A stretch of 64,000 nt of DNA from an uncultured Planctomycetota bacterium (lineage in GTDB: Bacteria > Planctomycetota > Planctomycetia > Isosphaerales > Isosphaeraceae), in the NCBI GenBank assembly GCA_963823665.1, contig CAWGMQ010000007.1, positions 960,001 through 1,024,000 on the forward strand, written 5' to 3'. A program made the position numbers and the translations under genes. Shown here one piece after another: positions 1 to 18,549 of this stretch; position 1 is the first letter of the stretch; each line of letters begins with the position of its first letter. Below the pieces are notes generated by a model. It ran no database searches. It was not told where the DNA came from and saw only the letters and a list, made by a program, of their open reading frames with translations.

Positions 1-444
1 GCCATCGGACCGTCCCAAACCGGAAGGCAGACCCACACGAACTCCACCAGGGACTTTCGACCTGCTGGCGTTCACCCATTACTGGGGTCGCTCCCGGCAG
101 GGTCGCTGGGTGGTGAAGCGCAAGACGTCCAAAAGTCGATTTCGCCGCAGCCTGCGAACGTTGGCGGATTGGTGTCGCAAAAATCGCCATCAACCGCTCA
201 AGGTGCAGCACCGGATACTAGGTCAGAAACTGCTAGGCCACTATGCCTACTACGGAATCACCGGCAACTCCAAAATGTTGTCACGGTTTCGCAGTGGTGC
301 CACCTGGCTCTGGCAGCACTGGCTGTCGCGCCGCGGCGCGGCCGTCGGATGACGTGGGATCGGTTCGCTCGTTTCCTGAAGCATAAACCGCTTCCGGCAG
401 CGATCGCGATCCACTCGGTATGCCGTCTCGTAGCGAACAAGTGA
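1..444 (+). CDS. ltrA: Group II intron reverse transcriptase/maturase, C-terminal part (5' end outside the window; frameshift near 335)
   Basis: Frame 2 from the window start reads PGTFDLLAFTHYWGRSRQGRWVVKRKTSKSR...KLLGHYAYYGITGN...WLSRR, then MTWDRF...PLP in the 169..444 frame. This matches the RT7/maturase X-domain pattern, and DV/DVI follow immediately. Confidence 0.9.
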   Translation, partial: AIGPSQTGRQTHTNSTRDFRPAGVHPLLGSLPAGSLGGEAQDVQKSISPQPANVGGLVSQKSPSTAQGAAPDTRSETARPLCLLRNHRQLQNVVTVSQWCHLALAALAVAPRRGRRMTWDRFARFLKHKPLPAAIAIHSVCRLVANK

Positions 445-450
445 CATGAC

Positions 451-524
451 GAGCCGGGTGCCTGAATTGGGCAAGCCCGGATCTGTGGGAGCCTTGGGGG
501 AGCGATCCCCCAAGGCGACCCGGC
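451..524 (+). ncRNA. Group II intron domains V and VI (3' end of the intron RNA)
   Basis: DV-like hairpin GAGCCGGGTGCCTGAATTGGGCAAGCCCGGATC with the AGC triad, then a DVI stem CCTTGGGGG-AGCGAT-CCCCCAAGG and GACCCGGC, 6 nt after the maturase stop. Confidence 0.88.
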
Positions 525-897
525 GCCTTCCCTTGTTAACATCAATCTTTGCGGTTTCCCTCATCACTTAACATGCAAGAAGTATGCCCCCAAAAGATCG
601 TCGATCTCACGCACCTGTTGCAAGACTTCGTTTGCAGTTGGGAGTCGACCTAGAAGTTGAAATCGAATACGAAATAGGGTCCAAAGATCATTTATCTTAT
701 CATGAACGTTCCCCGCAACGGCAACTAGATTGCCTGGGTTGTTGTATTCCCGCGAGGAAGACCTGTTCGCTGCCCTCGATAAAGCAATCGCGCAGAGGTC
801 GAAAGAGGTGGGAGCCACGGACAGTTGATACGCCAGATCGTCCTGAGAAAGCCCCGCTCGATCGCTCGGCTCATGCCGATCGCCGGCTTAATCCGTT

Positions 898-919
898 GAT
901 GGGTGTCTGGAATCCCTTG
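898..919 (+). repeat. RAYT-associated end motif copy (GATGGGTGTCTGGAATCCCTTG)
   Basis: 20/22 identical to 2720-2741; related to motifs at 2587, 5831, 6035 and 7725. Confidence 0.7.
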
Positions 920-939
920 AAGCTCACGACTGTGCCGGA

Positions 940-1744
940 TTATCGCTTGCGCTTGCGAGCGCGAAGACGCCCCGCATCACGAAGAAGTTGCGCTGTCCAA
1001 CGTGCCGCGGCCGGCGGTAGGGGCGGTTGCGGAGCTTGAGTGTAATCGATGTCGTCGTAGCCGCCATTCTGATAGCACTGCTCAATTAGAGCTTGCAAGT
1101 CGAGCGGAACGTCGGAGTCAGTCGCCCGCAATGGCACTTTGATCGTGGGCAGCCGATCGGACAGGGCGATGGGGTGGTACTCTGCCTGCAAGCGCCGCCC
1201 GCCCCGGCGCACAACCACCCGATACTCGGTAAGCACATTCGGCTCAATCGCATCCATCGGCAGTGCGACGACCCAGTCGCCCCCACGCAACAAGTCGATC
1301 TCCACGAGATTCACACCCGCCAGACGGAGCTCCTGCTGCTTCCGTAAGTACTGTTCTTGGCCGTCGCCGGGCCTTTTGTTTGAAGGACTCAAGACCTCCA
1401 AGACGGTCACGAGTCGCGAATCGGACGAGACTTCTCGTATCTCGAGGAACCGCTGAGTCTCGGGCTCATCGGCCAGCTCGATCACGAGCGGCTGGGCAAC
1501 GGCTATGCTGCCGGCGCGTCCGGCCGCTCGCCTCGATGTGCGCTCCGTTTCGATGACGCGCACGTCGGGGAAGAGCGAGCGGGGGCGGTCAAACAGCGAA
1601 ACAACCACTCGCTCTTCAACCCTGGCGCAAATACCTGGGCAGCAGCGTTTGCAACCGGTCGCGCGCATATGTTACCAAACTGGTGTGAACATCACCCCAG
1701 TATCGCTCCAGGTAAGGGTCCATACCGGGAAAGGGACTGGGCAC
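940..1744 (-). CDS. DUF4058 family protein (frameshift near 1625)
   Basis: N-terminus (GTG) MPSPFPGMDPYLE..WGDVH; body FPDV, FLEIRE...LVTVLEVLSPSNK...YLRKQQE...NLVEIDLLRGG...LPTIKVPLRATDSDVPLDLQ...IDY..PPQPPL. Confidence 0.9.
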
Positions 1745-2084
1745 TTGAATCCTCACGGAAACCGCTGATACGAAACGAGCGAACACACGATTTGACCCCT
1801 CGTGGGCGAATTGTGCCCAGTCGGAAGTGACGGGAGCGTCGCCGCAAACCGATCACACCAGAGCATTCGAACCATTGTTGAGTACCTCTGGCAAGCATCC
1901 GGCCGAGCACCGCTCGTACCAACCAGATTCTAAGCGAGTTTAGCACGTATTGCCAACGCTGGTGCCCAGATCGTTGGCAAGAAGATGTGACGGACTGCGA
2001 GCTCCGAGTTCCTCACCCGAATCCGCCGACCAAACCGACGACAAGCTCGAAGCACGATGCGTGTCCTGGCCCTTCTGGACCGGG

Positions 2085-2345
2085 TTAGAACTTCGGGGCC
2101 GCCTCGACCCGGACCAGGACATCCAGGCTCACCGCCTGGCACACCCGGGTCCCGTCCCAGCGCACGTAGACCATGCCCGCGCGAGGCCCGTCTGGCCGGG
2201 CAAGCCCGACCACGGTCCCGGGCCGTTCGGCGGTGCGGCCGTGGCGCGAGCTGGTCGCGAATGCGGCCAGGTCCAGGGTTACGCGGTCGCCTCTGTCGAA
2301 CATGGGCGGGGTCCTGGGCTGCGTTAGCGTTTGGGAGAGCGGCAT
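2085..2345 (-). CDS. Small hypothetical protein, possibly an SH3-like barrel
   Basis: ORF MPLSQ...FDRGDRVTL...PGTVVG...GMVYVRWDG; the pattern resembles small beta-barrel (DUF4314-like) proteins but was not verified. Confidence 0.45.
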   Translation of the reverse strand: MPLSQTLTQPRTPPMFDRGDRVTLDLAAFATSSRHGRTAERPGTVVGLARPDGPRAGMVYVRWDGTRVCQAVSLDVLVRVEAAPKF

Positions 2346-2384
2346 CTGCTTCGCAGTGATGTCCCTGAAGACGAAAGGTGTTAG

Positions 2385-2590
2385 GATCCATCTCAAGCGC
2401 GTGCATTCTCATGCCTACCTCAGGTTTATCGGCTATAAATGGCATTTCCGTGAGTGCCGAAAGAGCCAAGAGGTGATTTCCATAATCTGGGTGGCCAGCT
2501 TGAATGTGCCGAAGTTCATGGCCGAGCAGAAAGATCATGCAATCCCATGCGAGATACTCGGTCACGAGTTGACGAACGGCGTCAGTAGGG
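2385..2590 (-). pseudogene. Internal fragment of an HExxH metallopeptidase-like gene
   Basis: Lower-GC ~200-bp piece reading ...CMIFLLGHELRHIQAGH...HALEMD, with no start or stop of its own and bounded on both sides by GACACC-like motifs. Confidence 0.5.
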
Positions 2591-2741
2591 ATGTCAGACA
2601 CCCACCGTTTGCCGAGTGTCGGGCACTGGCCTTCTGCGTGTTCGAAATGACCAGAAGCCGTGGTTTTGCACCGAACGAGCGAGCCGCGAATGAGTGGATG
2701 CGGAGGACCGTGACAAAAGGATGGGTGACTGGATTCCCTTG
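2587..2741. mobile_element. ~155-bp non-autonomous mini-element with imperfect inverted ends
   Basis: Left end AGGGATGTCAGACACCCA, right end TGGGTGACTGGATTCCCT (14/18 inverted match); same end motif as the RAYT-like element at 5831-7744. Confidence 0.6.
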
Positions 2742-3024
2742 CTCGCAAGCCTCGTCAAACTTGCCCCCCATCGCATCAAGAACCGCGAGATCATTCTGAA
2801 CGAGCGCCCGAAGCCGGGGGTTCGTGCCCCTCGCAAAACCGCGCCAGCCGCAGATACGCTGCCCGAGCGTCATCATATCGCCCCTCGCGCGCCAGCTCGC
2901 AAGCCTTCCAATACCCAGCCGGCAGGCCATTCCTGGCACGGCCCGCCTCGCCATCGCCCTTGGCCACCCGCGGCTCCTTCGCCTTCTTCTCACCCCGCCC
3001 AGATGCCTTCCCGCGCTTAGACAT
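2742..3024 (-). pseudogene. 5' part of a TPR-like protein gene, truncated at the end motif (frameshift near 2830)
   Basis: MSKRGK...YWKACELAREGRYDDARAAYLRL.../...LRALVQNDLAVLDAMGGKFDEA runs straight into CAAGGGAATCCAGTCACCCA. Confidence 0.55.
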
Positions 3025-3216
3025 CGCCGCCCCCGACCAACTCTGGATTCTAGGTTGCCGAGCTCAAGCTGCGATTCGGTCCGACTCCGTGGCGCCTTCG
3101 TGATCCCCTTCGGCATCGCCCGGGTCAGCGACGATTCAGACCCAGCTCGGCCCGCGCTCGACCCGCTCCTCTCCTTCGCCCGAATTCATTCGTGAAGATT
3201 CGTGCCATTCGTGGTC

Positions 3217-3464
3217 AACCAGCATTTCATACCCGCACATTCCCGACGCCCTCGCACCTTCCTCGCCCGTGTCATCTCATCTGCGTCCCATCGGCGTCAT
3301 CTGCGGACAAATCTCCGGTCCCTCGTCGTTCCCCTATCTCCGTTCAACGCGATCCGTGATTAACCAGCATTTCATACCCGCACCTTTCCGACGCCCGCGC
3401 ATCTTCCTCGTCTTTGTGATCTTATCTGCGTCCCATCGGCGTCATCTGCGGATAAATCTCCGGT
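3217..3464. repeat. Two ~103-bp direct repeats (3217-3319, 3362-3464) containing ATCTGCGTCCCATCGGCGTCATCTGCGG
   Basis: Direct comparison of the copies; preceded by an ATTCGTG x3 repeat at 3188-3213. Confidence 0.85.
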
Positions 3465-3519
3465 TCGCCCATCGCTTTCCCATCCCCGTCTAACAAATGA
3501 TCCGCCATCGTCCGTTCGC

Positions 3520-3903
3520 TCAAGTCGGTCCATTCGGTGGAGCAGGCCAGTGCGCCAGCGCATCCTTGAGCGCCCCGATCGCCAGTGCCGGGCAATGCAG
3601 CTTATCCGGCGGCACGCCATCCAGCGCCTCGATCAGATTCTCGACCGTCAAGTCCCGGCATTCCGCGATCGATTTCCCATTGATCATCTCCGTCAGCATT
3701 GATCCACTCGCGGTCGTCGGCCCGCAACCCACTGTGTGGTACTTCGCAGCCGCGATTCGCTCGTCCTCAATCCTCAAATAAACGATCATGAACGCCCCGC
3801 GGCCTGGCGCACCAGCATGGCCGGTCAGGTCGGGGTTCTCGATCGCCCCGCCGTTGCGAGGGGCCATCACGTGCTCAGTGAGCCTGTCGGAGTACTTCCC
3901 CAT
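3520..3903 (-). CDS. IscU/NifU-N family Fe-S scaffold-like protein (atypical)
   Basis: YSDRLTEHVMAPRNGG...VGCGPTTASGSMLTEMINGKSI...LDGVPPDKLHCPALAIGAL; the CGD motif is missing. Confidence 0.88.
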   Translation of the reverse strand: MGKYSDRLTEHVMAPRNGGAIENPDLTGHAGAPGRGAFMIVYLRIEDERIAAAKYHTVGCGPTTASGSMLTEMINGKSIAECRDLTVENLIEALDGVPPDKLHCPALAIGALKDALAHWPAPPNGPT

Positions 3904-4022
3904 GTTCGGCGCTCACGCACCGGGACCCTTGAACCCAAGCCTCGTCGAATTATGTTGAAAAGACGTCTGACCGCCTGAACGGCCATTGCGCCGCCGGGCC
4001 GCCGGGGCCGACAGAGCCGTCC

Positions 4023-4364
4023 TCAGCCCTCTCGCTGCTCGCGCCATCGGTACACATGCACCGGCCGGCCGTCTTTGGACGCCGCCCGCAGTTCGCCGGT
4101 CTGGGGATCGGGCTCGACCACAAGATAGCGCACGGGGTTGTCGCGGAACAGCTCGGTCGTACCGTCCGGCTGGGTGACGACGTACAGGCCCCTGGTGCGG
4201 TCGTGGTCGAAAGAAAAATGCCTGGGAGCTTCTCGAACCTCGTAGGTGCATGTGACCACTCCGGGCGTCGCCTCGTAGCAGACAGGATCCGGCCATCTTG
4301 CCGGCGCGTCGGCCCCGCCTGGATCCATGGGCCGACGGCCTTCGGCGTCAAATTCGGAATTCAT
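4023..4364 (-). CDS. Hypothetical protein upstream of IscU
   Basis: ATG preceded by GGAGG; plausible composition; co-oriented with the IscU-like gene. Confidence 0.6.
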   Translation of the reverse strand: MNSEFDAEGRRPMDPGGADAPARWPDPVCYEATPGVVTCTYEVREAPRHFSFDHDRTRGLYVVTQPDGTTELFRDNPVRYLVVEPDPQTGELRAASKDGRPVHVYRWREQREG

Positions 4365-4594
4365 TGCGGGCACCTCCAGAGAAACGGGTCAACGGAACGA
4401 GTGTGAAAAAGAAACGTCGCGCTAACACTCTCTTCCTGGCTGAGGGGAACAGGGACGCGGGAGCGAAACAAAGACGCGATCATTTCGTCTATGAATCTGA
4501 CTGCCGGCTGGAATCCGCGTAATTAGATTGTCGCCTCGGTCGCCGATTCGCTCGCTTTCCGCGGGCGGCCTTCAGGAGAAACGGTCTGCTCCAG

Positions 4595-4742
4595 GGCGAG
4601 ATGTTGCCGCAGGTGAGCCTCATCATCACACGCTCGAACGCCTCAAAGTCGGACTCCTTGTGGAACATACGCATCTCGCCGACGGATCGGTTCAGGACGT
4701 CATAGACAGACCCCCAGGTGCTACTCTCGCCGTTCTTGGCAT
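4595..4742 (-). pseudogene. N-terminal remnant of a REP-associated tyrosine transposase (RAYT/Y1)
   Basis: MPRTARVAPGG/VYDVLNRSVGEMRMFHKESDFEAFERVM matches the usual RAYT N-terminus (MPRxxR...YHVxNRG...F..D.DF..F); frameshifted and truncated before the HUH motif. Confidence 0.75.
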
Positions 4743-4807
4743 GACAACATCCGCCTGCAGAACTGACGGGTTCCGTCAATACTAATCGAGTCGCTGTTTC
4801 CGTCCGA

Positions 4808-5577
4808 TTAAAGGAGATTGTTGCCCACGTAGGCCCTTATCTGGATTCCAGGTATCGCATCAAGAAGGGCCCTTACTCCGGCTTCAGTCACACGCGTCTC
4901 CGTTACGTCTAGGGTCCGCAGGTTGCTGAGAACCCCTCAAATGGAGCAGACCTGCATCGCTGACCTCAGTGTCGCTGAGGTCTAGCTCGCGGAGATTAGT
5001 CAGTCCCTTCAGGTGCACCAATCCCGAATCCTTGATTCTGGCCGAGAACCAGAACGAGCTGTTGCAGTTGGGTCAATCCACGCAGATGAATCAAGCCCGC
5101 GTCAGTGACGTTGCTCCCATAAAGCAGAATCCGTTGCAGACTCGTCAGCCTATTCAGATGAACGAGGCCGGCGTCCGAAACCGACGACGCCCTGATTTTC
5201 AACTCGACTAATCCGGTCAGTCGACCGACAGGGATCATATCGTTGTCGGTAAACGTGAGCGAATGAGTTAGCCATCCCATCTGCTCAACGGCCACGGCGG
5301 TGTCGAAGTAGTCGACTCCAAGTGCATTGATTAGCCATCGTGGAGCCCGAGACTCGCTGATCCAACTGCGTGAGGCAGTCCCCTTTTTGTACTGCCATCC
5401 GTACCAGACACTGCCATCGGCTCTCCGGATCGCATCTACCGCGTCGCGCTGGACTCGGGCACAATGGACCATCCACCCAAACCCGCCCCCCAGTATCAGA
5501 ACGAGCAGAACGAACGCGCCGATGCTGATCTGGAAGTAACTTCGCCAGTAACCAGTCGCCTGCTGCGCGCGCATCAT
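4808..5577 (-). CDS. Membrane-anchored leucine-rich repeat protein (frameshifts near 5040 and 4940)
   Basis: N-terminal TM helix (FQISIGAFVLLVLILGGGFGW), QRDAVDAI..G motif and repeated VSDAGLVHL.RLT.L..L units. Confidence 0.85.
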
Positions 5578-5815
5578 ACCGCCTTCACTGACCACTAAAT
5601 CACAGTTTCGGGGACGCTCTGCTTACTTGGACGGCCGTCGGCTCGGTCCGCGTTTGTGCCGTTTGACGGTTGTGTTCAGTATTCTTCGGGCCAGGCCAGA
5701 AAGATTACTTGGTCGTGCACTCTGCCCGTTTGTTGGTGACCACGCATCAGTTCCACTTCTACCTCCGGAATGACGATCGCAACGAAGACAAACCGGTGGG
5801 CGCTAAGTCGAAGAG

Positions 5816-5840
5816 AGGGACTCAGGGACTCAAGGGACTC
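5816..5840 (+). repeat. AGGGACTC x3 micro-array abutting the element end
   Basis: Copies at 5816-5823, 5824-5831 and 5833-5840, directly before AGACACCCA. Confidence 0.85.
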
Positions 5841-6227
5841 AGACACCCACTCACTGGAGTGGGTTCCGGGGAAGGCGGACGCAGGTGAGTGGCACCGATT
5901 CGCGTACCTCGGTTGCTGGGTGACCCGCGGCCCTTCGCGGCCGACGCCGCGCACAGTAGGCAATGTACCACGCTCAGTCAGCGATCGTACGCGCTTGGGT
6001 AGGTTGCCGGCCACTGCACGCGTCGAAGATGCAAAGACACCCACTCACTGGAGTGGGTTCCGGGGAAGGCGGACGCAAGTGAGTGGCACCGCTTCAGGTA
6101 CCGCGATTGCTGGGTGACTCGCGGCCCCTCGCGGCCAACGCCGCGCACAGCAGACGCTGACCACGCTCGGTCAGCGATCGTATGCGCCTTGGTAGGTCGC
6201 CGGCGCTTGCATGTGTCGGTGCTGCGA
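5841..6227. repeat. Two tandem ~194-bp structured repeats (5841-6034, 6035-6227) downstream of the RAYT-like gene
   Basis: First 43 nt identical, remainder diverged; each copy begins with GACACCCA plus the hairpin ACCCACTC-ACTG-GAGTGGGT and contains TGGGTGAC (5917, 6111). Confidence 0.9.
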
Positions 6228-6363
6228 ACCGATCGATATCGACGGCGGTGCTTCTTCGCTTGCCGCGCCGCGCAGGGAACGAGGCTCGCCGACCTCGAAT
6301 TCAATTGAATTCCGGGTCCGTTGCACCGACTGGCGCTCGGGAGAGAGCGAGCGAGCCTCTTAC

Positions 6364-7580
6364 CTACAAAAACGCGAGTTGAGCGGCCGCCTTGCCCTGA
6401 AACCAGCGCCGTGAGCAACGCAGTGCAGCACGTATAAGCGAACTCGCTCGACCTGCCGCTTGCTTGAACATGCGACCGAAGTCGCGCACCGTCTCCACCC
6501 AATTCGTTCGATCCACTCCCAGCCGGTCCAGAATGGGAGCCAGGTCTTCCGCAATTGCCCCGCGCTTGTCCCGCCTGATTTCCCGGCCCGTCGATCGAGC
6601 AGCATGACGTACTTTCTGGTCTCGATCGGCAGAAATCCTTGATTCGACGCCCGCACAGGGAGCGGCCGTTTTGACGCCGCCTGGAGCGGCACGGCCGAAA
6701 ACGTGGCTGAAGAACCAGCAGGTGCCCGACGCCCCGCAGCATCGACATGGTCACCCGCGATCGGTTCGCACGCCTCAACCGTTTCTGAGGATGCAGCCGG
6801 CGAGCCTTCGGCCTGCCTGGTTATGGGAACGACCTCGTTCTCCCGCAACGTCAGTTCGCACAGCCAGGGACCCGCGCGATTGGAAGTTTCAGTTGAGCCT
6901 TCCTCGCGCGATGAACACAATCCACCCGGAGCGCCGACCAGGTCCAGAATGCGGTCAGCCCCCGACGTGAATTGCGATTTCTCCGGCGTAGTGGCGATTC
7001 CCGCCCGAATCGGGTTGAGATCGATATAGACGCTGCACGCCAAAAGCGCCGCCTCATCGAGCAGCGGCTGCGACTTGAAGCGGCCGGCCCAGAATCTCCC
7101 GGGCGAGTCGTCCTCGCGATTGGCCGCTCGGGCGACCCACTCGCACAAGCACCTCATGAACCACGACAGACTCGACAGCCGGCCGCGCTGAGCCGCCAGC
7201 CTCTCAGCATCGCCCATGAGCATCGCAAGGTCTTGGTCGTCGGGCTCCGCCGGCTCGCCGGTGACATCGTCACGTTGCGGACAGAGCTTGCGCCAGCGTA
7301 GTGCGACTTCGGCGTCGGACCAAAGCTCAACACTGTCGGGTCGATTGCGAAGCACCAGATGCAGGTGGTTACTCATAATGGCATAACCGCACACCTCAAC
7401 GCCGAAGAGTCCGGCGAGGTGGCGCAGCCGATCGAGAATCCACGCCTTACGGTGAGAGTAATCACGACCTGAATAGCAGTCGGTACCGCAAAGAAAAGCT
7501 CTTCGAACCCACCGAGCGATGCAGTGATAAACACCGACTTGATCCTCGTGGACGATGTCGCGGCGAGCAGAGGCTGGCAC
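6364..7580 (-). CDS. Long RAYT-like (Y1 HUH, DUF1568-type) transposase (frameshift near 6590)
   Basis: VYHCIARWVRRAFLCG, YAIMSNHLHLVL (HUH), SLSWFMRCL..ARAANRED..GRFW.GRFKSQ.LLDE.ALLACSVYIDLNPIRAG (catalytic Tyr); C-terminus in the shifted frame GREIRRDKRGAI..LAPILDRLG. Confidence 0.9.
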
Positions 7581-8145
7581 GTAAGGCTCCATCACCAGGC
7601 AGGTGTAGTACGTCAGGTGCATATCCACACGAACAGTAATGGACAAAATACCAATACTGCGGCGGTTGTCAAGCGTGTTGGGAAAAAAAGTCGACAGCAC
7701 ACACGTTCTACTCGAAGCGAACGGTGGATGTCTGGCTTTCCTTGCGCGCACTCGCACGATGCCGGTGAGCTGGTGGTCACTGCACGCGGCAACCGGCTGG
7801 TGGCACCGGCGGGGTGGGAATCTGCAAACGCGCTGGTGATTCCTGCGGCGGATTACAACGGGGGGCGGGTGCAGAACCGCAAGCTGGCGCTTTCGGATGA
7901 CGGTGCGGACGCGCGGGCGACCTCGCGCACGGCGGGCAAGAAGCCAGGGACTCGCGCGCTGAGTGGCTTGGGCGGTTCGGGGACCGCGGGCGGCTCACCG
8001 CTCGTTGAAGTCGTCAATCACCCGTCGGTTGTTCGGACGTCTCAATCAGCGTAAGCTACGTCTCTTGACCGTATCATCGTCCTGACGCGGTGAACGGGCA
8101 CGTTTCGCCCGACGCTTAACGCTTGCGGACAAACCGAGGATCTGA

Positions 8146-11100
8146 ATGGACCGTCGAGTGGCGGCATCGCGAGCGGAGCGGAGGCGCAGCTTTCGGAGGG
8201 TGCCGTCCTTCGAGCCCCTGGAAATGCGATGGTTGCGCGCGTCGATCGCGGCCTCGGCCGTTCCCGTCATGCCGCTGAGCGCGTCAGCCTGGACCTCGGT
8301 GGGACCGGCGCCGATCCTCGACGGCCAGGTCCCAGGCAACGGGCCGGTGACAGGGCGGATCCGAGCCGTGGTGCCGGACCCGGCCGACCCGAGCACCTTG
8401 TACATCGCGGCGGATGGCGGGGGCGTCTGGAAGTCCGCGGACGGCGGGACGAGCTGGACGCCCCTGACCGATCACGTCGATGACGGCAGCGGCAACCCTG
8501 TGAACCAGGCGATGGGGGCGCTGGCCGTTGCGAGGAGTAGCCTGCCCTCGACCGGGCCCGGCGGCGAGATCCTCTATGCCGGCCTCGAATCGGAAGACAC
8601 CCAGGGCGTCCTGGTCTCCTTCGATAGCGGCGCGAGCTGGACTCTGGAGAACGATGGCGGTGCGTTCGCTGGCTTGGGCGTCGATAAGCTCGTCGTCGAT
8701 CCGACCGATCCGACGGGTGAGACGGTCTACGCGATGATGAACAACCTGGATTTCAACGGGGTCGTCGGTGGCCAGCCGGGCATCTACAAGTCGTCCGACG
8801 GCGGCCGGACGTGGATCGATTCGGGCGCCGGCATCTCGACGGATGACACCTTCACCGACTTCGTCGTCGACCCCTCGAACGGCCTGGTCCTGTACGCGGC
8901 AGTCGGGCCCCCCATGTTCCAGCAGGGCGCGAGCGGGATATACAAGTCCCTCGACGGCGGCGGCACCTGGACCGAGCTGTCCGGCGGGGCCCCGAGCGGC
9001 GACGCGGCCGGGAACATCGCGATGGCGATTTCGCCGTCGGATCCGCAGACGCTCTTCGCCGTGAGCACCGACCCGACGACCGGCGCGTTCCGGGTCGTGC
9101 GGACCGCCGACGGCGGCACGGCCTGGACCGACGCGACCGGCAATGTGAAGTCCGCCGGGCCTCCGTACCTCATCGCCATCGACCCGACGAATCCGAGCGT
9201 CGTCTTCCTTTTCGGCGGGGGCCAATACGCCGGGGAGGCGACATACGACGCCGGTTACGACATGGAGACGACCGACGGCGGGGCGAGCTGGAATGACATC
9301 TCGATCGACCCGGCCGGGAACGGCCCGCACATCGATGACCATGCCTTTGCCTTCGACGCGAGCGGGGACTTGCTCATGGGCAATGACGGCGGCCTCTGGG
9401 AGCTCACCAAGCCGACGAGCCTGACGACCCAGCGCTGGATAGATCTCAACGGCAACCTCGACATCACCGAGTTCTACGGCGTGGCCCTCGACCCGACGGA
9501 CGCCGGCATCGCCTACGCCGGCTCGCAGGATCAGGGCATCGATAAGGTCCAAGCCGGCGTCGGCTGGGTCCAGCTCCAGCAGGGCGATGGCGGCTATGCA
9601 CGCGTCGATCCGTCCCACCCCGGGACCGTCTACATGGAGATCTATGGCATTGATCTCAAGCGCTCGGACGATGGCGGGCAGACCTTCACGGAGATTTCGC
9701 CCGGGTTCGACCTCCAACTGCTGTCCTGGGGCGATGGCTCGGGGGTGCCGACCACGGGCCAGAACCTCGTCATCGCTGGCACCGACAGCGACGGCCTGCT
9801 CCACATCCGGACTTTCGATTCCGCCCGCGTCCGAACCGACACCTACGAGGCACTGGAGGGCGGCACGCTCCATCTTGTGTCGGCCGACGCCTCGGGCAAT
9901 GTCCTGTCGGACGCGGCGGAGTCGAGCCTCTCCGCGGCCGCGACCGAGTCGATCACCGACCTCAAGCAGCAGCTACCCGGCTTGTTGCCCCCGCACGTCC
10001 TCACCCAGGCCGAGGACACGCAGGTCAACTTCGAGGCGACAACAATCACCGGTGAGACCCTCGGCGGCAAGTTCTTTATCCCCTTCGTCCTCAATCCGTC
10101 TGACCCCTCGGAGGTTCTCTACGGGACGGCAACGCTCTACCAGTCGACGGACAGGGGCCAGACGTGGACGAGCATCGGCGACTCCCGGGGCGTCGTTCAA
10201 CCCGTTCGCCGCGCCTATCGACGCGTTGGCCCTGTCGGGCACGGGGAGCGACACCACGATCTATGTCATGGCCGGAAACGACATCTACACCTCGAAGGAC
10301 GACGGGGCCACCTGGCAGGGTCGCGCGGTCCCGGGTTATAACAGCTTCCACTACGGCGACGCCTCGCTGGTGATCGACCCGACCAATCCGATGGTCGCCT
10401 ACGCCGTGAGGTACCAGTCCAATCCGGCCGGCACTGCGCCGATCGAGACCGGACACGTCTTCCGCACGGCCGATGGCGGTGGGACGTGGACAGACATCAC
10501 CGTCGACCTGCCCGATACTGCCGTCAACGCGATCGCCGTGAACGTCGTCGGGGGCACCACGCAGATCTGGGTCGGCACCAATCGGGGAGTCTATGCCTCG
10601 ACTGACCTGGGAGCGAGCTGGTCGACCTTTGGCGACGAGCTCCCCAACGCGACGGTGACGTCGCTCGAATACGTGGCGAGCTCGAACATCCTGCTAGCCG
10701 GCACGTACGGCCGGGGCGCCTGGGAGATCCTCGACCAGGGCGCTCTGCTCGTGCCCCCCGCGCCTCAGCTCGCGGCCGGGAGCGACACGGGCGTGAGTAG
10801 CACCGACGGGCTCACGCGGGACAATGGCTCCTCCTCCGCGCCAGTGACGTTTACCGTCAGCGGGGTCAGCCCGCTCAACGGCTTCGTTCAGCTCTATGAT
10901 GTCACCGATCCCGGAGGTCCCCTGCCGCTGGGCGGGCCGGAGCAGGCCATCGGCGGGATTGCCACGATCACCCTGGGCGGCGGCGGCGACCTCCCCCTGG
11001 CCGACGGCGTCCATCGAATCGCCGCGACGGCCGCGGTCACATCCGGCGGCGCTCCGAGTGCCGTCTCGGGATCGACCGCGGTCACGATCCAGACGAGCGT

Positions 11101-12084
11101 CCATATCGTCTCGACCACCCCGGCGGCCGGCTCGTCGGTCGCCGTACTGCCGGGCGGGCAGGTTACAATCCTGTTCGACCACACGCTCGCGAACCTGACT
11201 GACGGCGGAGGGGCGCTGGGACCGAATGATCCGAACGCCTTGACACTCACCACTGCCGGCGGCCAGGCGCTGGCGATCACCACGGTCTACCACGTCGACA
11301 CGGCGGATGGCACCTCCAGCATCGTGCTGACCCCTGTCTCGCCGCCCATGGCGGCCGTCGAGACCCTCCGAGTCACTCCGGGCGCGTTCACCGACCTGGC
11401 CGGGAATACCGTGAGCACCCGGGCGGCGGCCGGTTCACGTTCACCGTGACCGGCCCGAGCAACGCCCCCGTGGCGCTGAACCCGGTCCCGAACCAGACCG
11501 TGATGCCCGGTGGCCTGCTGCACGTCCAGTTCACCGCCAGCGACCCCGACATCGGGCGGACGCTGATCTACAGCCTGGGACCCGGCGCGCCTGTGGGTAC
11601 CTCGATCGACCCGAGTACGGGCCTGTTCACCTGGACTCCCGGCCCGGCCGAGGCTGGGCAGACCTATGACATCGCGGTGACCGTGGCGGTCCAAGGCGTG
11701 CCCGGAGTGAGCGACACACAACCCCTGATGGTCACCGTTCTGGCACCGCCGCAGGTCGAGAGGATCATGACCACGCAACGCCGTCGATCCGGGATCGATC
11801 AGGGAACGAGCGCGATCACCATCCTCTTTAACGAGCCGATGGCTCCATCGGCGGGGCTCGCGAGGTTCTATGCGGTCGAGACCCCGCGCAGGGTTCGCGT
11901 CGGCAAAAGAATTGCGACTCGCCTCGTTCCCGTCCGCTTCACCGCGAAATTGACCGCGGCAAACGGCGTCGCGCTGAGGCTCGCCAAGCCGTCGAAGGCC
12001 CACCTCGCGTTGATTGTCCGGGCCGGCGTCCGGGCTGCCAACGGCCTGACCATGGGCCAGGTGTTCAGCGAAAGCGTGCAGTGA
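8146..12084 (+). CDS. Large secreted BNR/Asp-box (VPS10/GH74-like) beta-propeller protein with Ig-like C-terminal domains (frameshifts near 10190 and 11420)
   Basis: Planctomycete leader RRVPSFEPLEMRWL; WTSVGPAPI...VTGRIRAV; many S.DGG.TW boxes; AGTYGRGAW; SDTGVSSTDGLT Big-like domain; FTASDPD..LIYSL..GAPVG.SIDPSTGLFTWTP putative Ig domain. Confidence 0.85.
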
Positions 12085-12257
12085 CCCGGCGAGAATGCCG
12101 CGAGGACCGAGACGTGCCGGAAGGCTGTAGTCGCAGGGCCACCTGATTTTGGGGGGGCGCTCGTCCTCCTTGCCCGACCCCGTCCGGAGCCGTAGACTCG
12201 ATCGGCCTTGACACTGCGACGCCTCGATCGATCCTCCGACGCACGGGCGGGATGGGC

Positions 12258-16762: not shown

Positions 16763-18549
16763 ATGCGTAAGGGAATTGGGGTCAGTCCGGGGGTCGTGGT
16801 GGGTGTGGCCCATCGGGTTGAGTCAGTTTTTGGCGAGTTCGAACAGCAGACGCTGGAGAGTCCGGGTCTGATCGCGGATGAGGTCGAGCGGTTTGAGCGG
16901 CGCTCCTCGACGCGGGGACGATGTACGAAGCGCTGATTCAGAACGTCGCCGAGAAGGTGGGTGATTCGTCGGCCGAGATTTTCAAGAGTCACCTGCAAAT
17001 CGTCAATGATCCGTCGCTGCGCTCCAAGGTTCGTGGTCTGATCGAGAACCAGCGTTTGACGGCGCTATCGGCCCTGCAAGCGGTGATGAACGGCTTCGCA
17101 GCCCAGTTCGCGCAGATCAAGCAGGAGAATTTCCGCGAGCGGGTGAATGACATCCGGGATGTGATCTTGCAGATCGAATCGCACCTGCGCATGCACAACG
17201 TCGCTCCGGCCGACTTTGCGGGCGCCTCGCGCAACGGGTCGGGGAACGGCAACGGTGATGAATGCATCATCCTGGTGGCGCGAGAGATTCTGCCGACCCA
17301 GGCCTTGAGCATGGGCGACTTGCCGATCGCCGGGATCGTGACGGAGCTGGGGGGCGGCACCAGCCACGCCGCGATCCTGGCGCGGAGCCGCGGCATTCCG
17401 GCGGTCTCGGGGCTCGAGGGAATCATGTCGGAGGTCGAGACCGGCGACATGATGGTCGTCGACGGCCGGGACGGGATGGTCATCGTGCGGCCGGACAAGG
17501 AAGCCACCTCGGCCTGGCGGAAAGTGCAGCGGGAGTTCTTCAACTTCAAGGACCGGCTGTTTGCGAACCGGGACCTGCCCGCTCGCAGCGCCGACGGCAC
17601 GCAGGTCGAGCTGCTGGCCAACATCAACAACCTGGCCGACGCCCAGTCGGCGACCAAGGTCGGCGCGACGGGCGTGGGCCTGTTCCGCACCGAATACCTG
17701 TTCATGACCCATCACGACGTGCCGGGCGAGGAGGAGCAGTACGAGTATTATCGACAGATCATCATGAACTCACCTGGTCAGTCGGTCACGATCCGGACGC
17801 TGGACCTGGGTGGCGACAAAACGGTGCCTTATCTGGGGCGCCGGGGTGAGGCCAACCCGTTCATGGGCTGGCGGTCGACGCGGATCTTCTTCGAGAACTC
17901 CAAGCTCTTCGTCACCCAGATCAGGGCGATTCTACGGGCCGGACGTCATGGGAAGGTTTCCATGCTCTTTCCCATGATCACGTCTCTCGAGGAATTGCTG
18001 TTCATCAACAACCTGGTGCAGGAGACGCGGAGCAACCTGCTGCGCGAGGGGATTCCTTTCGGCGAGGATGTGAAGCGAGGGATGATGGTCGAGGTTCCCG
18101 CGGCGGCTGTGTGTATTGATTCCTTCCTGCGCGAGACCGACTTCATCTCGATCGGATCGAACGATTTGATTCAGTACCTGGTTGCCGCGGACCGAGACAA
18201 TCCCAAGGTTGCGCATCTGTGTGAATCGCTGGCGCCGGCGATCTTCCGGGTGCTGCGCATCGTGCTCGACGCCTGCCAGAGGACCGGCACGCCGGTCACG
18301 CTTTGCGGCGAGATGGCCGGTCAACCGCGCGCCGTGCTGGTGCTCTTCGGCATGGGGCTGCGGCGGTTCAGCATGAGCCCGGCGTTCATTCCGACGGTCA
18401 AGGAGCTGCTATCGTCGGTGACCACGGCACAGGCCGAGCGGTTTGCCCATCACGTGCTGCAGCTCAGCACCAACGAGGAGATCCGCTCGTATCTGACGGC
18501 GCGGCTGCACGAGGTGTCGAGCGCGCTCGAGGTGTTTGACACGAACTGA
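16763..18549 (+). CDS. ptsI: Phosphoenolpyruvate-protein phosphotransferase (PTS enzyme I); frameshift near 16900
   Basis: MRKGIGVSPG start; GGTSHAAILARSRGIPAV (phospho-His), GVGLFRTEYLF, IRTLDLGGDK, EANPFMGWRS, SIGSNDLIQY, LCGEMAG. Confidence 0.95.

Follow-up and report, generated by a model that had tools for sequence, protein, structure and literature searches.

Features of the Locus

The window analysed here is a stretch of 64,000 nucleotides from an uncultured planctomycete. Its first 7,954 positions hold a transposase gene, short repeated ends, pieces of other genes and part of a group II intron, as follows.

1..532 (+): 3′ part of a group II intron, encoding a reverse transcriptase; the whole intron is 2011 bp and lies inside the left-end motif of an upstream transposase copy
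533..540 (-): outer half of the intron-split end, position 0 at 540; minus-strand sequence GGGAAGGC
899..916 (-): solo 18-nt stub of a 151a-type end, PWM score 30.0
940..1744 (-): DUF4058 gene, frameshifted near its start; Pfam PF13267, E 6e-53, profile positions 41-253 of 254
2023..2587: module also present in genome G001 (87%), joined there to the 151-bp element at the same junction
2588..2738: non-autonomous element of 151 bp (MITE/REPIN-like) with inward-facing ends GGGATGTCAGACACCCA and GGGAATCCAGTCACCCA
2739..3024 (-): 5′ fragment of a TPR-containing multi-copy gene, ending exactly at the element end
5816..5849 (+): outer right end; two head-to-tail stubs from 5816, then the motif at 5833
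6027..6220 (+): inner right end; repeats the outer copy at 87%, restarting about the core
6360..7592 (-): TnpA-Y1 HUH transposase gene, assigned to subclass 2.3; NHLH and YIDLNP, 113 aa apart
7725..7741 (-): left end, position 0 at 7741, PWM score 21.0
7745..7954 (+): 3′ fragment of a gene that is broken off 3 nt beyond the left end

The upstream transposase copy that hosts the window's intron is internally deleted. The intron matches NCBIfam TIGR04416 over 2-352 (E 2.7e-09, below the cut-off), and Rfam RF02005 matches its 5′ part upstream of the window. It is 99% identical to its other copies, and all 13 group II intron copies found are located in the motif. The end that it splits is a seventh end in the window, absent from an earlier note on this DNA, and the core half of this end lies before the intron start (C7:958514). 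Inward of the solo stub at 899..916 lies unrelated DNA, and the inner sequence matches no end class. The motif does not cut the 3′ end of the DUF4058 gene, as the stop codon is 23 nt away from the end, on its outer side, and the Pfam match extends to profile position 253 of 254.

The module at 2023..2587 holds a conserved 72-aa ORF (2085-2302, minus strand), and no Pfam family was found in it. An orphan HExxH fragment had been described as starting at 2587, a reading that was rejected. Its frame lacks coding constraint (3 synonymous and 15 non-synonymous codon changes relative to G001), with H changed to Q within the motif; no longer homolog was found in a search limited to proteins of 129-2000 aa, which is weak on its own. 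The copies at 2588 and 2738 belong to one 151-bp element, of which they form the inward-facing ends. The junction at 2587 and the element are common to G001, and the DNA at the other end is different. There, the TPR-like gene is cut between 2739 and 2738, as had been claimed: seven homologs (four in G000, three in G001) continue for hundreds of codons. TPR Pfam matches in this gene and its long homologs are weak and below the cut-off, and a glycosyltransferase label for the long homologs was dropped because Pfam gives only weak TPR.

At the transposase element, 5841-6025 is repeated at 6035-6218 with 87% identity, and alignments to paralogs start at 6035-6052. Beyond the left end, the gene at 7745-7954 has an 86% homolog 14 kb upstream and an ortholog in G001, and both continue. 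The 210-bp repeat formed by 7745-7954 and C7:953981 was considered as a target duplication and rejected, as its identity is only 86% and G001 synteny resumes at window position 12161. Both 2588..2738 and the left end at 7725..7741 are matched over their whole length, with 0 differences, by contig sequence from run X1, possibly the source sample.

The Transposase

By published signatures, the gene at 6360..7592 is placed in subclass 2.3 of the Y1 HUH transposases. The window copy and its paralogs carry NHLH and Y[IV]DLNP, and the HUH-to-Y distance is 113 aa in the window copy and 109-117 among the 23 ORFs listed. In an alignment of 132 sequences, N75, H76, H78, Y189, D191, L192, N193 and P194 are invariant, T209 and S210 are nearly invariant, and conserved positions of the C-terminal part extend up to 400. 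The planctomycete proteins are about 405-409 aa long. Relative to three paralogs, the window copy lacks one base at about 6594, by which its C-terminal domain is frameshifted (a broken gene or a sequence error).

No Pfam match was found for the transposase protein, the core of which is of the long 2.3 type, and a sequence search for a solved structure found none. The predicted model of paralog L032 (pLDDT 77) matches the E. coli TnpA-REP structure 4ER8 (Foldseek E 2e-05; VIA Z 13.2, rmsd 2.5, 159 aligned), which indicates that the enzyme shares this fold; the whole-model search gave no separate fold match for the C-terminal domain. G000 contains 38 protein matches of the enzyme, with motif flanking examined at a subset of these loci. 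A protein search with one homolog, in which 8,000 candidates were scored, returned at least 7,901 proteins.

The Repeated Motif Is an Element End

The six motif copies of the earlier note are all present near the positions given there, and a position weight matrix (PWM; seeded with 51 strict matches) recovers all six. It places position 0, the first element base, at 916(-), 2588(+), 2738(-), 5833(+), 6027(+) and 7741(-). The match at 6027(+) is weak (score 11); the reversed-sequence control gives 2 matches of score 10-12. One further PWM match, at 18124, lies in host coding sequence common to G001; this match and another at 8596 are coding and were rejected as ends. In the logo, made from 189 sites, information content is at background from position -1 outward and position 3 is A in 86%, which gives the consensus 5′-GGGAWNCCAGACACCCA. 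The motif therefore begins with GGG. The earlier 20-mer does recur with up to 3 mismatches at 900-919, 2722-2741 and 7725-7744 (all minus; expected 0.00), and its 'CAA' part is flank. The logo lacks a GT[AG]G foot.

Background frequency had been named as a possible refutation of the motif. A genome-wide scan for GGGADDCMAGACACCCA with at most 1 mismatch gave 152 matches (79 forward, 73 reverse), against 0 for the reversed-pattern control. Only 7 motif matches were found in forty 20-kb regions of backbone away from clusters, so the motif is concentrated in islands. In 151 genomes of the class, a 16-mer has 88 matches in G000 and at most 2 in each other genome; this pattern is lineage-specific, and its co-occurrence with the enzyme over the 151 genomes is thus uninformative. 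No description of these ends came up in the literature searched, which took in few subscription papers.

The motif had been called non-palindromic. This is right for the single end, as four of five folded single ends did no better than shuffles and one reached z -2.4, and wrong for the whole 151-bp unit, which forms a long hairpin (-31 kcal/mol, z -3.29). At least 41 genome matches to the 151-bp element are listed (40 of 98 candidates scored). Gene-less elements have fixed lengths of 140, 151 and 165 bp, and the transposase element is about 1800 bp long.

Junctions and Target Sites

Homology breaks were compared at 179 ends and 1790 control points in G000 and G001. A flank homolog was found for 36 of the 179 ends: 12 have the junction in common, 21 break within 5 nt of position 0 and 3 break elsewhere. 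Controls with a homolog numbered 329 of 1790; 8 of these broke within 5 nt and 271 were continuous. Unshared breaks within 5 nt of the terminus account for 21/24 at ends versus 8/328 at controls. The loci were selected for carrying the motif, are drawn from two related genomes and are non-independent. Among 16 clean junctions, the break lies at position 0 in 9 and within 1-2 shared bases in 7. The start of each end at position 0 is sharp, and the GACACCCA core, conserved across phyla, follows about 9 nt further 3′. The idea of a breakpoint mark stands insofar as unrelated DNA is joined exactly at the motif; the copies themselves are ends of discrete elements, not independent or free breakpoints.

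The ends are joined at position 0 to arbitrary DNA without target duplication. For 69 elements, no target duplication rose above shuffled pairing: the longest flank repeat was 0, 2, 3 or 4 bp in 47, 15, 6 and 1 elements, compared with 37, 22, 7 and 2 after shuffling. The comparison of orthologous loci that had been suggested yielded no contiguous empty site among these 69 elements, 31 of which have a flank homolog. The last four acceptor bases show no sequence preference except low T. Some stubs break on their inner side into foreign DNA (window 899, C3:196956, C5:1402495 and C11:698404), which requires a second, distal cut. Public contigs gave no informative alternative joints, with runs X2-X4 holding small shares only.

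Reiterated Ends and Arrays

Head-to-tail reiteration of ends, starting at position 0, is frequent, and the elements cluster in arrays of one orientation. In an unbiased tandem scan, made without an anchor on position 3, the second copy starts at -1, 0 and +1 in 12, 29 and 13 cases, and at every other position in at most 5. Stubs at 136 ends repeat the own end in 22 cases and the opposite end in 1. Neighbouring elements have the same orientation in 49 of 53 pairs, and an element-plus-cargo repeat of 3.7 kb starts at an end in G001. At 15 of 21 loci, the elements are oriented in agreement with the local GC skew; the skews are small.

Between the elements of arrays lie one to few intact-looking ORFs, and cargo ORFs occur in both orientations. 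Fixed-boundary cassettes were not seen among the modules, most of which are exact at only one side. Some modules are 94-98% identical between G000 and G001, in a backbone of 81-88%, and one of them has an end junction in common. Thirteen inward-facing intervals exceed 500 bp; those that can be assigned lie at HUH gene matches or hold an intron, and no other transposase was seen in the thirteen.

Homologs in Other Genomes

The inverted bracketing of the HUH gene by the motif, as claimed for the window, is also found at homologs in other phyla. At around 80 metagenomic homologs the core points inward in 73 cases and outward in 1. The core was found in only 26/62 upstream flanks and 23/52 downstream flanks, and on both sides in 11/41. 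A relaxed-pattern count at 35 loci included several per genome and about 25 opposite-orientation background matches, so the 80-homolog count is relied on. The exact core faces inward at five of eight gammaproteobacterial loci.

The complete genome G138 has 14 strong motif matches; all motifs there are direct repeats on the same strand, offset by 11 nt, and its copies carry a left-type spacer on a right-type inner end. Four copies were compared with G175, and a fifth has no syntenic left flank. No empty site was found for the four, which sit at orthologous loci in G175, so no new insertion is demonstrated there.

A Nick-Copy-Rejoin Reading and Its Rivals

The motif is probably the terminal signal of mobile elements that are driven by the subclass 2.3 Y1 HUH transposase and joined by nicking, copying and rejoining. 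The enzyme would be the maker of the joints, and we infer the cut strand and polarity from the footprints. The enzyme would recognise the core and nick the GGGA...GACACCCA strand at position 0 (±1-2 nt), about 9 nt 5′ of GACACCCA, with the nick position set by distance and not by sequence. Its tyrosine would keep hold of the element's 5′ end, and the freed 3′-OH of the flank would be extended by host polymerase. The nascent 3′ end, or another nearby 3′-OH, would then resolve the tyrosine link. Short extension would leave stubs of 7-103 nt, long extension would duplicate the element with its cargo and produce same-orientation arrays, and joining of a distant 3′-OH would give one-sided joints, truncated genes and patchwork islands. 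Since the two ends would act independently, the flanks of one element are proposed to come only rarely from a single locus. Several observations weigh against this reading: the stubs that break inward into foreign DNA, the one-strand direct repeats of G138 and their orthologous positions in G175, the presence of the core at only some of the metagenomic flanks, and the frameshift in the window's own gene. Resolution of the 5′-phosphotyrosine of HUH enzymes by an added 3′-OH is described (PMC8266576), and the same nick-prime-rejoin scheme was proposed in 2012 for BIME amplification (PMC3333891, Fig. 7B).

Ordinary two-ended transposition of elements with terminal inverted repeats, whether by this HUH enzyme or by a different transposase, is an unlikely alternative with some points in its favour. 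Deletions beside the elements and recombination among their copies would later have erased target duplications and left one-sided joints, and stubs would be insertions into a sister end. The elements do have fixed lengths (140, 151, 165 and ~1800 bp), inward ends and precise outer boundaries. In ordinary insertion sequences, such deletions and recombination also erase target duplications and commonly account for their absence (PMC11708052), and the locus C10:2569372 resembles an adjacent deletion. What counts against it is that 69 elements (31 with a flank homolog) gave 0 empty sites and no duplication signal, that own and opposite stubs are expected about equally and were seen at 22:1, and that 49/53 neighbours share one orientation.

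An integron-like process appears still more doubtful. In it, gene cassettes of fixed extent would leave as circles formed between two like-oriented ends and re-enter the DNA at a different element, which would make the arrays ordered cassette stores. Same-orientation arrays with intact-looking ORFs between elements would fit it, as would the 94-98% identical modules in an 81-88% backbone with one end junction in common and the G138 copies, whose right-type inner end bears a left-type spacer of the kind that a circle junction would produce. Cargo ORFs, however, are oriented both ways, many joints cut genes, transposase genes and elements included, and most of the shared modules have an exact boundary at an end in just one of the two genomes or in none. 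Least credible is that the enzyme is not the cause of the joints, and that hairpin elements stall forks or invite slippage and repair, with the host making the stubs and rearrangements. The 151-bp unit folds well, and the islands are rich in other mobile DNA, group II introns among them. Slippage needs no fixed start, yet starts pile up at -1 to +1, and the 1.8-kb transposase elements and solo ends, neither of which can form the long hairpin, have joints and stubs as well.

Relation to Known Systems

The enzyme resembles published subclass 2.3 proteins in its NHxH and Y[VI]DLNP motifs, the long spacing between HUH and Y, the TS motif that comes next, an additional C-terminal domain and several diverged copies per genome (PMC6006769). 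Quentin et al. 2018 report no REP-like sequences beside subclass 2.3 genes, and GACACCC/GGGTGTC is absent from two text supplements of that paper (PMC6006769). As published, the subclass is described without flanking repeats and with a median length of 325 aa, whereas here there are defined ends, non-autonomous families and proteins of ~405-409 aa (PMC6006769). TIRYT/TIRtron elements also have a Y1 gene between terminal inverted repeats and dispersed repeats as singles, dimers and clusters (PMC3733652). Their consensus GGGGWSAS differs from GGGAWNCCAGACACCCA; 20/26 examples belong to subclass 2.1 with a C-terminal HTH and none is listed as 2.3 (PMC3733652), and TIRYT was equated with subclass 2.1 by Quentin et al. 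(PMC6006769). Subclass 2.1 is marked by a short core and a C-terminal Bac_DnaA_C/HTH domain; the protein here has a core of the long 2.3 type and no Pfam match. The passages of PMC3733652 compared here describe neither a junction nor a cut position, and neither reiterated ends nor movement of cargo; some overlap with the sequences of its Figure 9 is possible.

REPtrons, BIMEs and REPINs share the fold (4ER8), the hairpin doublet and the lack of target duplication, and nick-prime-rejoin and flank capture have been proposed for them (PMC3333891, PMC8266576, PMC3116915). The 151-bp unit is likewise an inverted doublet with a hairpin and fixed length. Unlike REPtrons and REPINs, the present elements have no GTAG foot or short REP palindrome. 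Boundaries at CT dinucleotides in REPtrons and BIMEs contrast with a fixed distance from the core here, and, in a further difference from REPtrons, the transposase gene is multi-copy and the elements, which cut genes, are clustered in accessory islands.

The 69 elements, with no target duplication or empty site, differ from MITEs of DDE insertion sequences. IS200/IS605 elements have strand-specific ends with subterminal hairpins and an orientation bias towards the lagging strand; the present ends are inverted copies of one motif, with the GC-skew agreement given above. IS91, ISCR and Helitron elements use HUH chemistry and have one-ended events, adjacent capture and no target duplication; they have distinct ori and ter ends, larger Y2-type enzymes and, in IS91, a fixed target tetranucleotide. 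In the present system, by contrast, the same core lies at both ends and acceptors have no consensus. Integron arrays and attC-targeting group IIC introns combine same-orientation repeats between accessory genes with an intron that targets the repeat. Same-orientation repeats and a group II intron in the repeat are found here too, but the cargo is neither cassette-oriented nor cassette-bounded, and no integrase was seen. IS91, ISCR and Helitron elements are also named as acquiring neighbouring genes (PMC3333891).

Significance

The published classification assigns subclass 2.3 no DNA substrate; a candidate substrate with a predicted strand and cut position is offered here, which makes the activity directly testable. 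The spread of REP-type repeats is a long-standing open question, and the reiterated ends would be footprints of the 2012 nick-prime-rejoin model. More tentatively, it is possible that subclass 2.3 is a widespread one-ended joining system that binds an 8-bp core, sets the nick by a ruler and ligates to any nearby 3′-OH. Miniature elements would then seed the building and reshuffling of same-orientation accessory islands, end-bounded modules would cross species and resident copies would be homogenised in place, in an HUH-driven counterpart of the integron without a fixed cassette boundary and with a dedicated group II intron parasite. An enzyme that joins a short end to an arbitrary 3′-OH in vivo would be a candidate single-strand joining tool and, in several phyla, would contribute to gene truncation, duplication and the building of islands.

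Motif and elements

The six motif copies proposed from the sequence alone are all real, and a position weight matrix (PWM) recovers 6/6. In the window, three matches to the earlier 20-mer were found at ≤3 mismatches (expected 0), and a 17-mer version gave 152 matches in the whole genome (16.5 Mb) versus 0 for the reversed pattern. Over 189 sites in the fetched loci, conservation begins abruptly at a G, the first base of the element (position 0), with GGGAWNCCAGACACCCA and then a weaker YCSTTT, and is at background level from position -1 outward. The 'CAA' previously counted in the motif thus belongs to the flank. Motif copies are the inward-facing ends of discrete elements. The 578 kb of source-genome loci contain 45 facing pairs, which group by length at 140, 151 and 165 bp and at about 1.8-1.9 kb.

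Features of the window
1-532: 3' part of a group II intron, which fills this stretch
533-540: seventh end, split by the intron
899-916: 18-nt stub of an end
2588-2738: gene-less 151-bp element, at least 41 matches among those listed
5816-7741: long element with the HUH gene inside
7592 to 6360, reverse strand: HUH gene

A long, imperfect hairpin is predicted for the 151-bp element (z -3.29). Contigs of one public run, possibly the source sample, cross two of the window junctions with 0 differences.

Junctions

At three window junctions the central idea of the earlier note is borne out: unrelated pieces meet at the motif. At 2739|2738 a TPR-containing gene ends at the element; seven homologs continue, and their continuation has no match to the other flank of the 151-bp element. 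At 2587|2588 a related genome (G001) has the identical junction and element with other DNA at the far end. At 7745 the 3' piece of a gene starts 3 nt beyond the left end, and two homologs continue. The note's observation is confirmed, but its interpretation is supported only in part. Compared with G001, the supposed orphan HExxH fragment shows 3 synonymous versus 15 non-synonymous codon changes, H being replaced by Q, and no longer homolog of the frame was found. A cut of DUF4058 by the motif is likewise unsupported: its 3' end is complete. An 18-kb island (window -5809 to 12161; C7:954191-972161) that contains the whole mosaic, including the BNR-repeat gene at 8146 and the two copies of the transposase, is absent at the syntenic G001 locus.

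Several other features were seen in the window. The module of the TPR gene and a nifU-like gene (2739-4431) occurs in at least four further places in the source genome and several in G001. Between the TPR-like gene and nifU lies a 140-bp tandem duplication (3204-3343 and 3349-3489, 84%, within 3141-3489), whose copy number varies in paralogous modules. The stretch 4448-4805 is repeated at several loci. Its translation may be the N-terminal part of a shorter transposase of RAYT type; the overlapping ORF has no NCBIfam match. Single frameshifts in several genes (940-1744, 2791-3024, 4780-5595, 8146-12084) could reflect either decay or errors in the long-read consensus.

Junctions were surveyed in 1.0 Mb of loci from the source genome and G001, picked for carrying the motif. 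Of 236 outer ends, 57 were left out because they scored low or were flanked by element DNA, and 179 were tested. A flank homolog was found at 36/179 ends, where the junction was shared in 12, the break lay ≤5 nt from position 0 in 21 and elsewhere in 3. Control points had a homolog at 329/1790, with 8 breaks at ≤5 nt, 271 run through and 1 shared. No target duplication was detected at 69 complete elements, flank repeats being no longer than in shuffled pairings; nor was an empty site, since both flanks were contiguous in none of the 31/69 elements with a flank homolog. The joints are therefore one-sided, with an exact position in the element and an arbitrary one in the partner DNA.

The HUH enzyme and its ends

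Intact paralogs of the HUH enzyme have 405-409 aa, with 113 aa from NHLH to YVDLNP; the window copy is one base short at about 6594 relative to three paralogs. A paralog model resembles E. coli TnpA-REP (4ER8; Z 13.2, rmsd 2.5, 159 aligned). Judged by the published sequence signatures that define subclass 2.3 (Quentin et al., 2018; PMC6006769), the enzyme is a TnpA-Y1 member of that subclass. The same study reports that automatic and manual searches alike gave no REP-like sequences next to genes of subclasses 2.1 and 2.3 (PMC6006769). The source genome has 38 protein matches, 4 near full length, and the closest transposase relatives are from Isosphaeraceae and other Planctomycetota. A second subclass 2.3 lineage, 45% identical, lies at C3:289k and C10:189k of the source genome (loci L047 and L048); no end motif was found by PWM in these 3.6-kb loci.

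Near 80 metagenomic homologs, 73 copies of the core G[AG]CA[CT][CT]CA point inward and one outward. The core is present in 26/62 upstream flanks, 23/52 downstream flanks and on both sides at 11/41, and the commonest inward 8-mer is GACACCCA. Of eight gammaproteobacterial loci, five carry an inward-facing exact core, one a variant and two neither. Conservation between phyla does not extend to the 9 nt 5' of the core, suggesting that distance sets the element boundary.

Footprints and proposed mechanism

In the 1.0 Mb, 84 of 333 tandem runs lie near an end; their second copies start at -1 (12), 0 (29) or +1 (13), with units of 7-103 nt and no consensus in the acceptor bases. Outer stubs at 136 ends of 68 elements were of the same end in 22 cases and of the opposite end in 1 (none 109, skipped 4). 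Orientation is common to 49/53 neighbouring pairs of one family. In G001, an element-plus-cargo repeat of 3.7 kb shows the layout of the stubs on a larger scale. The stub, start-position, orientation and repeat patterns would be expected if the enzyme nicked at position 0 and kept the 5' end of the element on its tyrosine, the 3'-OH of the flank were extended, and the new 3' end then resolved the tyrosine link. The element boundary, joints, stubs and common orientation are themselves observed; the cut, its polarity and the role of the enzyme we infer from them. This scheme was proposed for BIME amplification, with flanking-gene capture noted as possible (Ton-Hoang et al.; PMC3333891), and the TnpA-REP link was resolved in vitro by an added 3'-OH (PMC8266576).

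Ordinary adjacent deletions could also lie behind the absent target duplications, which they likewise remove (PMC11708052), but they leave the counts of 22 versus 1 for stubs and 49 versus 4 for orientation unexplained. The nick-and-extend scheme has misfits of its own. Some stubs run inward into foreign DNA (e.g., window 899), so a second cut further out would be needed. Element orientation showed no clear association with GC skew (agreement at 15/21 loci, skews small). In a further genome, G138, every motif is on one strand at an 11-nt offset, with variants GGGACACTCA or GGCACCCA. Among the copies at G138 loci L174, L175 and L179, about 170-250 bp of the downstream flank of one is also present at the other two, followed there by a fresh motif. 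The G138 transposase copies at L173, L176, L177 and L179 sit at loci orthologous in G175, the genome of another species, with flanks 81-88% identical; their identity is 98-99% inside G138 against 84% across the two genomes, which points to concerted evolution or in-place replacement. In-place replacement may thus equal new insertion in importance. The ends in G175 contain long periodic arrays.

Cargo, intron and known systems

Rough ORF calls place one to a few intact-looking ORFs, in either orientation, between elements of arrays. Several modules are 94-98% identical between the source genome and G001, where the backbone is 81-88%; one shares its junction at an element end, whereas the rest have exact limits in just one of the genomes or in none. 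Those at 97-98%, all between elements (C11:561757-563640, C11:552184-553324, C6:916371-917056), suggest recent transfer between the two species. Module identities, junctions and ORF orientations support DNA that moves and accretes at ends rather than cassettes of the integron type, which have fixed limits. A bolder reading, tentative and rather doubtful, is that HUH enzymes drive the building of islands whose cassettes have no fixed limits.

A group II intron family (RF02005) has a 733-bp ORF-less form and a 2011-bp RT form. Copies lie at window 1-540, C3:130352, C6:911026, C10:1458546, C11:571327 and elsewhere. In 13/13 copies found genome-wide, the intron is directly preceded by TGGGTGTC[TC], which is the core read on its reverse strand. 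A predicted hairpin has the complementary AGACAC at its tip (intron 220-225), a candidate EBS1. TIRtrons have a like architecture, but their GGGGWSAS consensus is absent here (Di Nocera et al., 2013; PMC3733652). REPINs share the hairpin doublet, but their GTAG foot is absent.

In the literature searched, mostly outside subscription papers and for Di Nocera et al. limited to text passages, neither the ends and their miniature elements nor the reiteration of ends and the end-targeting intron were described. Judged by that literature, this large HUH subclass has an end system that had not been described. This end system bears unusually clear footprints of a one-ended nick-copy-rejoin activity, in which the cut itself would be made at the element boundary.
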